Positions 18,756-20,658 of a DNA stretch of 64,000 nucleotides are shown one piece after another. The notes beneath the pieces were generated by a model. That model had not been told where the DNA came from. It worked only from the letters and a program-made list of their open reading frames with translations, and ran no database searches. The stretch comes from a virus (taxonomy: Duplodnaviria; Heunggongvirae; Uroviricota; Caudoviricetes). Positions within the stretch are counted from its first letter, which is position 1. Each line of letters opens with the position of its first letter. The translations under genes were made by a program, and so were the position numbers. The DNA is taken from positions 69,404 to 133,403 of the IMG/VR virus record IMGVR_UViG_3300001199_000001, one strand, 5' to 3'.

Positions 18756-18784
18756 TTGACATACCTGAATTTGAATGTTAGCTT
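18756..18784 (+). promoter_or_regulatory. Promoter of module E
   Basis: TTGACA-N17-TAGCTT. Confidence 0.75.
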
Positions 18785-18791
18785 CCCCGAC

Positions 18792-18893
18792 ATGAGCAGA
18801 ACCTATACCCAGTTTGTGCAGATTTGCAACCAAGTCCGAGTTAATCGGGCGGGGCGCACTGCGCTTGTGGGTGACGGAGGTTCGGAGTTCTAG
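18792..18893 (+). CDS. Leader peptide E, MSRTYTQFVQICNQVRVNRAGRTALVGDGGSEF
   Basis: Codons 7-19 are all Gln/Phe/Val/Ile/Cys/Asn/Arg, plus AGA, TAT and CGC; these match the eight amino acids of the downstream tRNAs. Confidence 0.85.
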   Translation: MSRTYTQFVQICNQVRVNRAGRTALVGDGGSEF

Positions 18894-18923
18894 TTCCAAA
18901 CCATTCTTCTCAGCAAGTTCAGT

Positions 18924-18958
18924 AAGGCCCCGCCGATAAAACCGGCGGGGCCTTTTTT
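18924..18958 (+). terminator. Intrinsic terminator (attenuator E)
   Basis: AAGGCCCCGCCG-loop-CGGCGGGGCCTT followed by TTTT. Confidence 0.92.
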
Positions 18959-18982
18959 CTATGGCCGTTTCCCGAGGCAGCA

Positions 18983-19219
18983 ATGACCGAGATCGAAAGA
19001 CTGACCAAACGAATGGCCGACATGGGAGTGCGTAACTTCAACGCCTTATGGGGTGACAAAGCTCACCTCATCTCGGCGGAAGAAAGGGCTGCGGAACTTA
19101 ACAAGAGCTTCGACCGGATCGAGGCTGGAGATTTCGAATTGGTCGGATGGCCAAAGACAAACAAACCGATGGTCGATGTGAGCGCATGGCTCGCTGATCA
19201 GGAAAAGGAGAAAGAATAA
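18983..19219 (+). CDS. Hypothetical protein, 78 aa
   Basis: GAGG RBS; lies between the attenuator and the tRNAs. Confidence 0.65.
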   Translation: MTEIERLTKRMADMGVRNFNALWGDKAHLISAEERAAELNKSFDRIEAGDFELVGWPKTNKPMVDVSAWLADQEKEKE

Positions 19220-19223
19220 TTTT

Positions 19224-19307
19224 GGGCAGGCTGGGCACGAGTGAGCCCAACCGACTGTAAATCGGCCGCGAACGCTGTGGGGGTGCGAATTCCCTCTCTG
19301 CCCACCA
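19224..19307 (+). tRNA. trnY: tRNA-Tyr(GTA)
   Basis: V-arm, loop CT-GTA-AA, T-loop TGCGAAT, CCA. Confidence 0.88.
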
Positions 19308-19313
19308 ACATAC

Positions 19314-19389
19314 GGACACAAAGCTAATCTGGTGAAAGCATCGGTCTGAAAAGCCGAGGAGGTTGGATCGAAACCAACTGTGTCCACCA
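19314..19389 (+). tRNA. trnF: tRNA-Phe(GAA)
   Basis: Loop CT-GAA-AA, CCA. Confidence 0.92.
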
Positions 19390-19393
19390 ATTT

Positions 19394-19468
19394 GATCGCG
19401 TAGCTCAGCGGGAGAGCGTTGCCTTGACATGGCAAAGGTCGCAGGTTCAATCCCTGCCGTGATCACCA
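19394..19468 (+). tRNA. trnV: tRNA-Val(GAC)
   Basis: Loop TT-GAC-AT, CCA. Confidence 0.95.
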
Positions 19469-19546
19469 AGATAGGGTTCCGGTATGATGCAACGCAGCCG
19501 GACGTAAGGGCAAACTGATTGAAGGAATGCCGCCCGCCGAGTTTGA

Positions 19547-19621
19547 TGACGCGTAGCATAGTGGTTAGTGCAGGCCGCCGATAACGGCCCGACCCCGGTT
19601 CAAATCCGGGCGTGTCTACCA
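19547..19621 (+). tRNA. trnI: tRNA-Ile(GAT) #1
   Basis: Loop CC-GAT-AA, CCA. Confidence 0.85.
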
Positions 19622-19626
19622 AGTTT

Positions 19627-19701
19627 GGACGCATAGCTCAGTGGTAGAGCAACGTGCTGATAACGCGTAGGTCGCAAGTTCAACTCTTGCTGCGTCTTCC
19701 A
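19627..19701 (+). tRNA. trnI: tRNA-Ile(GAT) #2 (U73)
   Basis: Loop CT-GAT-AA, CCA. Confidence 0.88.
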
Positions 19702-19741
19702 ATTTAACTCTAACGCCGAGGAGGCGCGAACGAAATATAGA

Positions 19742-19815
19742 TGGGCGTTGGATCAGTGGCTGATCACCTCTTTTACACGGAGGCTAGGGGAGTTCAATTC
19801 TCTCACGCCCAACCA
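19742..19815 (+). tRNA. trnV: tRNA-Val(TAC)
   Basis: Loop TT-TAC-AC, CCA. Confidence 0.85.
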
Positions 19816-19835
19816 CTTTAATATCTTCCCTCTGA

Positions 19836-19908
19836 TGGGGGCGCTGACTGATTGGTAGGTGGCCACGCCCTGAACGTGGAGGACTAGGTTCGAACCCTAG
19901 GCCCCCAT
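19836..19908 (+). tRNA. trnQ: tRNA-Gln(CTG), no encoded CCA
   Basis: Loop CC-CTG-AA; acceptor stem extended by a 15-bp flanking duplex. Confidence 0.82.
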
Positions 19909-19924
19909 CAGAGGGAAGATATGA

Positions 19925-20000
19925 TGCCGGGCGGTCTGAGTGGTCAGATACCTGACTTTGAATCAGGTGGAAGTAGGTTCGAGCCCTATACCGGCAGCCA
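19925..20000 (+). tRNA. trnQ: tRNA-Gln(TTG)
   Basis: Loop CT-TTG-AA, CCA. Confidence 0.9.
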
Positions 20001-20012
20001 AGCTAAGTTTGA

Positions 20013-20088
20013 TGAATAGTAGCTCAATTGGCAGAGCACCCGGCTGTTAACCGGGGGGTTGCAGGTTCGAAGCCTGCCTATTCAGCCA
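20013..20088 (+). tRNA. trnN: tRNA-Asn(GTT)
   Basis: Loop CT-GTT-AA, G73, CCA. Confidence 0.95.
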
Positions 20089-20094
20089 GCTTTT

Positions 20095-20170
20095 AGGAGC
20101 GTAGCTCAGTGGATAGAGCGTCAGTTTGCGGAACTGAAGGTCGCAGGTTCGATTCCTGCCGTTCCCGCCA
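20095..20170 (+). tRNA. trnR: tRNA-Arg(GCG)
   Basis: Loop TT-GCG-GA, CCA. Confidence 0.9.
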
Positions 20171-20196
20171 AGTATTGTATAGTAAATGTGTTCAGG

Positions 20197-20271
20197 AGAG
20201 GCGTAGCTCAGTGGATTCAGAGCGTCGCGCTACGAACGCGAAGGTCGCAGATTCGAATTCTGCCGTCTCTG
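20197..20271 (+). tRNA. trnR: tRNA-Arg(ACG), no encoded CCA
   Basis: Loop CT-ACG-AA; 11-bp flanking duplex. Confidence 0.85.
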
Positions 20272-20301
20272 CTGAATACATTAATGATCTTTGACATCAT
20301 T

Positions 20302-20378
20302 GTTCCCGTGGTCCGAGTGGCTTTAGGCGGTAGGCTGCAACCCTACATACGCAGGTTCGATTCCTGCCGGGAACTCCA
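20302..20378 (+). tRNA. trnC: tRNA-Cys(GCA)
   Basis: Loop CT-GCA-AC, U73, CCA. Confidence 0.93.
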
Positions 20379-20390
20379 CTATACTATAAT

Positions 20391-20466
20391 GACGCGGTAG
20401 CTCAGGGGACAGAGCATCGGTTTCCGGAACCGAGGGTCGGGGGTTCGAATCCCTCTCGCGTCGCCA
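20391..20466 (+). tRNA. trnR: tRNA-Arg(CCG)
   Basis: Loop TT-CCG-GA, CCA. Confidence 0.93.
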
Positions 20467-20467
20467 C

Positions 20468-20542
20468 GGGGTCTTAGTGAAGTGCATATCATTCTCTCCT
20501 CCTAAGAGAGCGTCAGGGGTTGGAATCCTCTAGGCCCCGCCA
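20468..20542 (+). tRNA. trnR: tRNA-Arg(CCT)
   Basis: Loop CT-CCT-AA, CCA; T-loop TTGGAAT. Confidence 0.85.
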
Positions 20543-20581
20543 CTTCGTAGTTGTTGACATAGTAGGCTTTTTCGAGTATCT

Positions 20582-20658
20582 GTGGACGTAGCTCAATGGA
20601 TCAGAGCATCCGGCTTCTACCCGGAGGGTTGCAGGTTCGAGTCCTGCCGTCCACGCCA
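20582..20658 (+). tRNA. trnR: tRNA-Arg(TCT)
   Basis: Loop CT-TCT-AC, CCA. Confidence 0.93.

Follow-up and report, generated by a model that had tools for sequence, protein, structure and literature searches.

The leader, the terminator and the tRNA genes of module E

The locus considered here resides in a window of 64,000 nucleotides, the whole stretch of DNA that was analyzed, which corresponds to bases 69404-133403 of a virus record of 278,859 bp (~279-kb genome) in the IMG/VR database. Approximately 42 transfer RNA (tRNA) genes are spread over positions 7184-20658 of this window. The last of them belong to module E, the largest tRNA module of this genome, in which a short open reading frame (ORF) and a terminator precede a block of 15 tRNA genes with 14 distinct anticodons for eight amino acids, and which is treated here as a candidate leader-peptide attenuator. 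The window is syntenic with the phiCbK-like phages of Caulobacter and Brevundimonas (Dolichocephalovirinae), and the common gene order comprises a giant lectin-like ORF, Trp-Gly, Glu-Asp, a Pro-to-Ser block, a Tyr-to-Arg block and tail genes. The tRNA regions of eleven of these relatives were compared (CcrColossus, CcrPW, Kabachok, Kikimora, Bajun, CcrSC, CcrBL9, Magneto, phiCbK, Rogue and BL10), and "12 phages" in alignments and counts denotes these together with the phage studied here. Nucleotide identity between the window and the phiCbK-like phages is restricted to a few tRNAs. The main features of module E are the following:

18756-18761, plus strand: -35 box TTGACA of the leader promoter, read from the sequence
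18779-18784, plus strand: putative -10 element TAGCTT, after a 17-nt spacer from TTGACA and 7 nt before the ATG
18792-18893, plus strand: leader ORF of 33 codons plus stop, MSRTYTQFVQICNQVRVNRAGRTALVGDGGSEF, with ATG at 18792 and TAG at 18891-18893
18798-18848, plus strand: putative sensing codons AGA (codon 3), TAT (codon 5) and the unbroken codons 7-19, assigned by codon-to-anticodon match
18855-18857, plus strand: CGC (codon 22), a cognate codon beyond the main run
18924-18958, plus strand: intrinsic terminator between leader and tRNAs, with a 12-bp stem (10 G-C pairs), a 7-nt loop and TTTTTT
19224-19307, plus strand: tRNA-Tyr(GUA), atypical, first gene of the block (ARAGORN, relaxed threshold)
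19314-20658, plus strand: 14 tRNA genes in the order Phe, Val(GAC), Ile (two genes), Val(UAC), Gln(CUG), Gln(UUG), Asn, Arg(GCG), Arg(ACG), Cys, Arg(CCG), Arg(CCU) and Arg(UCU) (ARAGORN, default)

A preliminary description of this DNA had already named the promoter box, the ATG, the 33-codon ORF, the terminator and the set of tRNAs. Direct reading of the sequence returned the box, start and ORF at the same positions and codons 7-19 exactly as quoted there, the terminator was found with its stem and T stretch, and ARAGORN recovered the tRNA set.

No Shine-Dalgarno sequence is present upstream of the leader ATG, which coincides with the predicted transcription start. In each of the 12 phages, a TTGAC(A/G/C) box lies 36-37 nt upstream of this ATG. 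This spacing fits a leaderless mRNA, which the module E leader probably has. In Caulobacter, 375 leaderless mRNAs are translated as efficiently as leadered ones (PMC4117421). The extended -35 motif TGTTGACA occurs in 68 copies in the genome compared with 8.5 expected. Length, start and stop positions of the leader ORF are kept in the 12 phages, and all insertions and deletions are multiples of three. The leader promoter was missed by a scan for the sigma-70 consensus, since TAGCTT makes a weak -10 element under E. coli rules. Genome-wide, many long ORFs have an ATG 34-37 nt downstream of a TGTTGACA box, which suggests that this phage generally makes leaderless mRNAs from host-type promoters.

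The terminator is among the two strongest in 15 kb, is kept in all relatives with compensatory changes, and the records of phiCbK and CcrColossus list a rho-independent terminator at this site. The interval between the terminator and the first tRNA contains no further promoter-like box.

The gene for tRNA-Tyr was missed by ARAGORN with default settings and by Rfam. An unannotated CcrColossus sequence matches it at 90% identity, and in all relatives the gene opens the homologous block, with the anticodon-loop sequence CTGTAA invariant in the alignment. When an exact word from this gene was searched in IMG/VR, only CcrColossus and CcrPW were matched. The gene is unannotated in the records of CcrColossus, CcrPW, Kabachok, CcrSC, CcrBL9 and phiCbK; counterparts lie at 14005-14090 of locus L002 and at about 5800-5890 of L016, and Sphingobium phage Lacusarx as well as Rhizobium phages contain related copies. 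The phiCbK genome paper reports the absence of a Tyr tRNA (Gill et al. 2012), in contrast to the Tyr gene seen here. Note also that the tRNA at the Asn(GUU) position is called Ile(AAU) in the group of phiCbK, Magneto, Rogue and BL10 (L011 11885, L016 6498, L014 6863, L015 6851).

Correspondence between leader codons and downstream tRNAs

Codons 3-22 of the leader sample 13 of the 14 anticodons of the block. As stated in the preliminary description, codons 7-19 together with AGA, TAT and CGC match the downstream set, and only AGG, read by the CCU anticodon, lacks a codon in the leader. Under standard wobble rules, 18 of the 32 codons following the start are decoded by tRNAs of block E, compared with one to four of 32 for the other blocks. 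The 13 consecutive cognate codons represent the joint longest run among 557,714 codon positions (six frames, whole genome), at a background frequency of 0.34 for the codon set of block E (six frames). The match between leader and block is not due to chance.

The same holds for two further modules of the window. The leader of module B (Pro, Met, Thr, Lys) offers an exact Watson-Crick codon for all eight anticodons of its block, and its run of 14 codons is the single longest genome-wide for its set, the next best being 11. In module D (His, Ala, Ser), 25 of 33 leader codons match and the run, again of 14 codons, is the single longest, followed by one of 10. When the matching fraction of every leader is tabulated against every block, the diagonal values amount to 0.53 for B, 0.76 for D and 0.56 for E, while the off-diagonal values for these three leaders range from 0.00 to 0.13. 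Leaders A, C and F are weaker in this matrix, the highest off-diagonal value of which is 0.40.

Below the level of amino acids, the signal is modest. In module E, 16 different codons are found among the 18 cognate ones (P = 0.012), the corresponding test was not significant for modules B, C and D, and five modules taken jointly gave 0.07. A test of synonymous choice for wobble coverage was not significant either (P = 0.20 for E, 0.72 for B and 0.94 for D). Accordingly, no strong selection on codons as such, in addition to that on amino acids, is claimed here, modules C and F (described further below) being an informal exception.

Conservation of codon identities in homologous leaders had been named in the preliminary description as one of the points on which its proposal could fail, and the comparison did not refute it. 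All 11 relatives possess an E-type leader of 29-32 codons, followed by a strong terminator and by tRNAs for Tyr, Phe, Val, Ile, Gln, Asn and Arg, and in all 11 the leader is composed of the amino acids of its own block. Within the 15 sensing columns of the alignment, the order of residues drifts (NN, QF or QN; V, F or N; N, Y, I or F). Nevertheless, 16 of the 21 alternative amino-acid states stay within the set Y, F, V, I, Q, N and R, compared with 23% expected for random single-base changes (P = 4.6e-7). One of the five states outside this set is the Cys codon of the window: the phage studied here is the only one with a tRNA-Cys in block E, and its leader is the only one with Cys among the sensing codons.

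The remaining blocks behave in the same manner. In the relatives, tRNAs for Pro, Thr, Lys, Leu, His, Ala and Ser form one fused block behind a single leader made of those residues, which matches in 41 of 44 codons in phiCbK and in 35 of 38 in CcrColossus. In the window, the equivalent block is split into three (B, C and D), each with its own promoter and a leader limited to its own amino acids. A tRNA-Trp closes the fused block in CcrSC and CcrBL9 alone, and a Trp codon is likewise confined to their two leaders. Selection on which tRNAs are called for, as opposed to selection on the peptide, would be expected to leave such a pattern.

A further instance stems from an unrelated, AT-rich metagenomic phage contig (L052, MDSY01060954.1), where a 21-codon leader, a strong terminator and tRNAs for Trp, Pro, Tyr, Met, Cys and Ile(UAU) lie at 12437-13064. 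Codons 7-14 of this leader (ATA, ATA, TGT, TAT, ATA, TGG, TGC and CCA), together with ATG, name all six downstream tRNAs. The contig was retrieved by a 16-mer scan of metagenomes that gave at least 120 matches; among the 80 loci listed, 76 were chance matches without a tRNA array, and of the four with arrays L052 alone has a clear codon-matched leader. A quick look at Sphingobium phage Lacusarx and at contig L010 revealed no obvious codon-matched leader.

Alternative RNA helices and the proposed switch

Folding of the leader RNA yields three helices that are formed from four segments, the last of which is the 3' arm of the terminator listed above. The others are:

18832-18840, plus strand: segment 1, 5' strand of the anti-antiterminator hairpin, inside the sensing codons (minimum-energy fold, RNAalifold)
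18844-18867, plus strand: segment 2, alternative partner of segment 1 and of the terminator 5' arm, with the core GGCGGGGC at 18848-18855
18914-18935, plus strand: segment 3, 5' arm of the terminator plus CAAG and CAGU, antiterminator partner of segment 2 (fold without the terminator 3' arm)

In the fold of the full leader (-74.9 kcal/mol, z = -5.2), the terminator is accompanied by a long hairpin that comprises the sensing codons and the G-rich stretch behind them. If the RNA is folded without the 3' arm of the terminator, GGCGGGGC (18848-18855), ACUG and CUUG find their pairing partners in GCCCCGCC (18927-18934), CAGU and CAAG. This is the antiterminator proposed in the preliminary description, and its partners co-vary in the relatives. 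The leader of CcrColossus shows the same folding behavior with a different sequence, and module B of the window folds in the same design of helices 1:2, 2:3 and 3:4.

In the alignment of the 12 phages, helix 1:2 (columns 41-49 with 53-61) is paired at 89.8%, with three pairs changed on both sides, the 11-bp helix 2:3 at 96.2%, with four such pairs, and helix 3:4 at 95.8%; each helix has three to four pairs changed on both sides. The covariation score was reached by none of 500 shuffles for each of the three helices; as the 12 sequences are related, these shuffle controls overstate significance and are not probabilities, and the sounder control is to slide the partners by one column, upon which pairing falls to 48-67%. 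RNAalifold recovers helices 1:2 and 3:4 unguided. Moreover, segments 2, 3 and 4 co-vary, with the core GCGGGGC / GCCCCGC in the phage studied here, GCGGGCC / GGCCCGC in most relatives and an A/T variant, CGGAC / GTCCG, in CcrSC and CcrBL9. It is the slid controls and this triple co-variation that carry the structural argument.

Rfam was searched with cmscan over 6800-21000 (E <= 1), and only tRNAs and chance-level matches were returned, none of them over 18756-18960 and none to a leader family. The T-box family (RF00230) gave no match in either of two Rfam scans.

Module E combines a 5' ORF, cognate codons, a terminator, an antiterminator and an anti-antiterminator over the sensing codons, i.e., the structural elements of a leader-peptide attenuator. 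On the basis of sequence analysis, we are fairly confident that it is a ribosome-mediated transcription attenuator that controls a tRNA operon and provides feedback on decoding capacity. We infer from its anatomy that the leader is translated from a leaderless start, in which direction the switch works and how it affects tRNA levels. In the proposed sequence of events, transcription would begin at or beside the leader ATG and a ribosome would translate the 33 codons while RNA polymerase advances. The sensing codons would serve as the 5' strand of hairpin 1:2, the 3' strand of which, segment 2, can alternatively pair with the 5' arm of the terminator. If all sensing codons were decoded fast, hairpin 1:2 and the terminator would form and transcription would stop at about 18958. 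If a charged tRNA were scarce, the ribosome would stall on any of the sensing codons and hold segment 1, segment 2 would capture the terminator arm, and the polymerase would read through into an ORF of 78 amino acids, described further below, and the 15 tRNA genes. The new tRNAs would quicken decoding and the gate would close, giving negative feedback that is set separately for each tRNA block. That stalling should result in read-through and more tRNA follows from the anatomy, because it is that of a classical attenuator. The term "multi-input OR gate", used in the preliminary description, is a plausible one for such an arrangement.

A footprint model for the stalled ribosome puts limits on which codons could serve as inputs. 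With the A site at codons up to approximately 15-16, segment 2 is left free. The preliminary description had listed codons 7-19 together with AGA, TAT and CGC. According to the model, the effective sensors would lie approximately at codons 3-16, suggesting AGA, TAT, CAG, TTT, GTG, ATT, TGC, AAC, CAA, GTC and perhaps CGA as well-placed sensors, but not CGG (codon 19) and CGC (codon 22), where stalls would favor termination over read-through.

Several points weigh against the attenuator as proposed. Stalls at codons 17-24 cover segment 2, the antiterminator strand itself. With no ribosome-binding site at the ATG, translation of the leader hinges on the putative leaderless start. When the 3' arm of the terminator is absent, helix 2:3 outcompetes helix 1:2 even without a ribosome, and when it is present, the terminator is part of the minimum-energy fold at every ribosome position, as simulated by masking the footprint. 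Equilibrium folding does not decide the switch and the model therefore rests on kinetics, as for trp. Starvation for amino acids would likewise slow decoding and open the gate, though extra tRNA would be of no help. To these points belong also the relatedness of the 12 sequences and the modest synonymous signal mentioned above.

The attenuator could be real and yet report general ribosome activity, coupling or host takeover, with ancestry accounting for the choice of codons. The evidence for the helices is silent about which codons matter, cognate codons 17-22 are badly placed for antitermination and the synonymous-codon signal is weak, all of which would agree with such a function. However, the amino acids are divided among the leaders of a single genome just as they are among its blocks, a fusion of blocks goes along with a fusion of leaders, codons for Trp and Cys accompany the tRNAs for Trp and Cys, replacements remain inside the amino-acid set, and the unrelated phage L052 repeats the match with a different set, none of which a general sensor would require. 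We consider a general sensor of this kind improbable.

It is still harder to reconcile the data with an ordinary gene for a micro-protein followed by an ordinary terminator, with the tRNAs being transcribed by constitutive leak-through or from an unrecognized promoter. GenBank records do list the leaders of the big blocks as hypothetical proteins and the hairpins as plain terminators, and a GDGG-like stretch at the C-terminus of the peptide is conserved. Yet this conserved part coincides with the 3' strand of hairpin 1:2, while in the sensing part set membership alone and not the order of residues is conserved. In addition, an antiterminator that co-varies with the terminator would have no role, and a promoter box between terminator and tRNAs was not seen. 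We regard this explanation as very unlikely. Just as unlikely is a switch of opposite polarity or at another level, in which a stall would leave the RNA open to Rho or a nuclease and reduce the yield of tRNA, or the timing of tRNA processing would be set by the element. In its favor, the direction of the switch is inferred, and modules C and F lack a U-tract terminator, so that not every module can use intrinsic termination. However, module E has a canonical terminator, its helices 1:2 / 2:3 / 3:4 are arranged as in attenuators where stalling gives read-through, and less tRNA upon slow decoding would be a positive feedback towards collapse.

Neighboring features, other modules and known systems

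Four further features lie within or directly next to the transcription unit:

18983-19219, plus strand: orphan ORF of 78 amino acids, with GAGG as ribosome-binding site, located after the attenuator and before tRNA-Tyr
20292-20297, plus strand: TTGACA box, 5 nt before tRNA-Cys
20554-20559, plus strand: TTGACA box in extended TGTTGACA context, 23 nt before tRNA-Arg(UCU)
20698-21231: HNH endonuclease gene, start of the next unit, directly after the tRNA block

The 78-amino-acid ORF gave no match to Pfam, PHROG or, by tblastn, to phages. It is unique to this phage; in the relatives, the leader stop lies just 104-133 nt before the first tRNA. Given its position behind the gate, the ORF would share regulation with the tRNAs.

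Two internal TTGACA boxes had been described previously as possible means to uncouple the distal tRNAs. The position given for the second, 20554, is exact, while the first starts at 20292 and not at 20291. Judged from their positions, neither box can yield an intact tRNA-Cys or tRNA-Arg(UCU), because a start approximately 30 nt downstream falls within the respective tRNA. As four relatives, CcrColossus, CcrPW, Kabachok and Kikimora, have a TTGACA box after the last tRNA of the block, the box at 20554 may serve to transcribe the next unit and not tRNA-Arg(UCU). The HNH endonuclease encoded by this unit has a homologue (62% identical) within the tRNA array of an unrelated 108-kb IMG/VR contig (L010, 6001-6516). 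The location of this homologue suggests a homing element directed at tRNA arrays. When the HNH protein was used as a query for closer relatives of the phage, this unrelated tRNA-array phage was the one match, and the upstream 152-amino-acid protein as a query revealed no closer relatives.

The other modules of the window differ in their equipment. Module A (10461-10740) has a 21-codon leader, MTYMIIFREREALSGRDTFAA, with GAA, GAG and GAT before tRNA-Glu(UUC) and tRNA-Asp(GUC). These are its only three cognate codons; the peptide is kept in the relatives (...EREA..GRDT.AA). Its two tRNAs have odd T arms and were detected by Rfam and missed by default ARAGORN. In module C (13565-13816), four different consecutive Leu codons (TTA, TTG, CTA and CTT) lie ahead of five tRNA-Leu genes; a U-tract terminator is absent and a structured tRNA-like stretch is present at approximately 13690-13800, part of which is called Pro(CGG) by ARAGORN at relaxed threshold. 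Module F (17018-17206, minus strand) has a TTGACG box and an ATG a few bases past a putative -10 element. Its ORF of 10 codons (MSYISIITIR) contains three ATA codons (ATA usage is 7% in this phage) and precedes tRNA-Ile(UAU), a match at the codon level; a UUCG hairpin without U tract takes the place between them, i.e., there is no intrinsic terminator.

tRNA genes are usually regarded as constitutive or controlled by growth rate, and both the reasons for phage tRNA genes and their control are open questions. If the proposed function of module E is correct, it would place decoding capacity under direct feedback, at the resolution of single tRNA blocks and in part of single codons, and would extend textbook attenuation to a new class of targets. 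We put forward only tentatively, and with some doubt, that the six codon-matched attenuators and their counterparts in phiCbK-like and unrelated phages constitute a distributed sensor of the host tRNA pool, in which each block is switched on when its own decoders fail; this would amount to tRNA homeostasis and possibly to a counter-defense circuit without a protein regulator. Triggers could then include codon-usage mismatch, host shut-off and the cleavage or depletion of tRNAs by host defenses. As compact elements without a protein component, the modules might also be used to sense the supply of individual tRNAs. These proposals are readily testable, given that phiCbK, a cultured phage that infects the model organism Caulobacter crescentus, also carries this unit. 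An RNA-seq time course of phiCbK infection exists (PMC10688885), the supplementary tables of which hold no usable expression values for phage tRNAs or leaders. The phiCbK genome paper mentions neither leaders nor attenuation (Gill et al. 2012), and our literature search found no account of attenuation of tRNA genes, though most subscription journals lay outside this search and absence is not proof.

Module E can be compared with three kinds of known systems. Multivalent leader-peptide attenuators control enterobacterial amino-acid operons, as exemplified by ilvL of ilvGMEDA with codons for Ile, Leu and Val and by thrL with codons for Thr and Ile. Module E shares with these a short leader that is presumably translated, a hairpin whose 5' strand contains codons for multiple amino acids, anti-antiterminator, antiterminator and terminator structures that exclude one another, and the expectation that a stall at any sensed codon gives read-through. 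In contrast, its targets would be tRNAs and not biosynthetic enzymes, such that the output is the decoder and not the amino acid. It samples eight amino acids and 13 anticodons, mostly once each and without codon runs, and it is viral, probably leaderless and present as one gate per tRNA block.

In E. coli, pheST, encoding phenylalanyl-tRNA synthetase, is an example of leader-peptide attenuation of a component of the translation apparatus, and module E would resemble it in this respect. In alphaproteobacteria, the likely host class, attenuation of the trpL type is described for Sinorhizobium meliloti (PMC7298713). Both pheST and trpL sense a single amino acid and act on protein-coding targets and not on a tRNA gene, unlike module E.

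T-box elements need neither a ribosome nor an ORF and bind uncharged tRNA directly by means of a specifier codon and the T-box motif. Here, as is proposed for module E, a choice between terminator and antiterminator tunes genes for translation supply according to the state of specific tRNAs; module E, however, has a presumably translated ORF as its element. The mechanism itself is known, and new in module E would be tRNA genes as the target, the breadth of eight amino acids, the probable leaderless start and the modular gate for each block.

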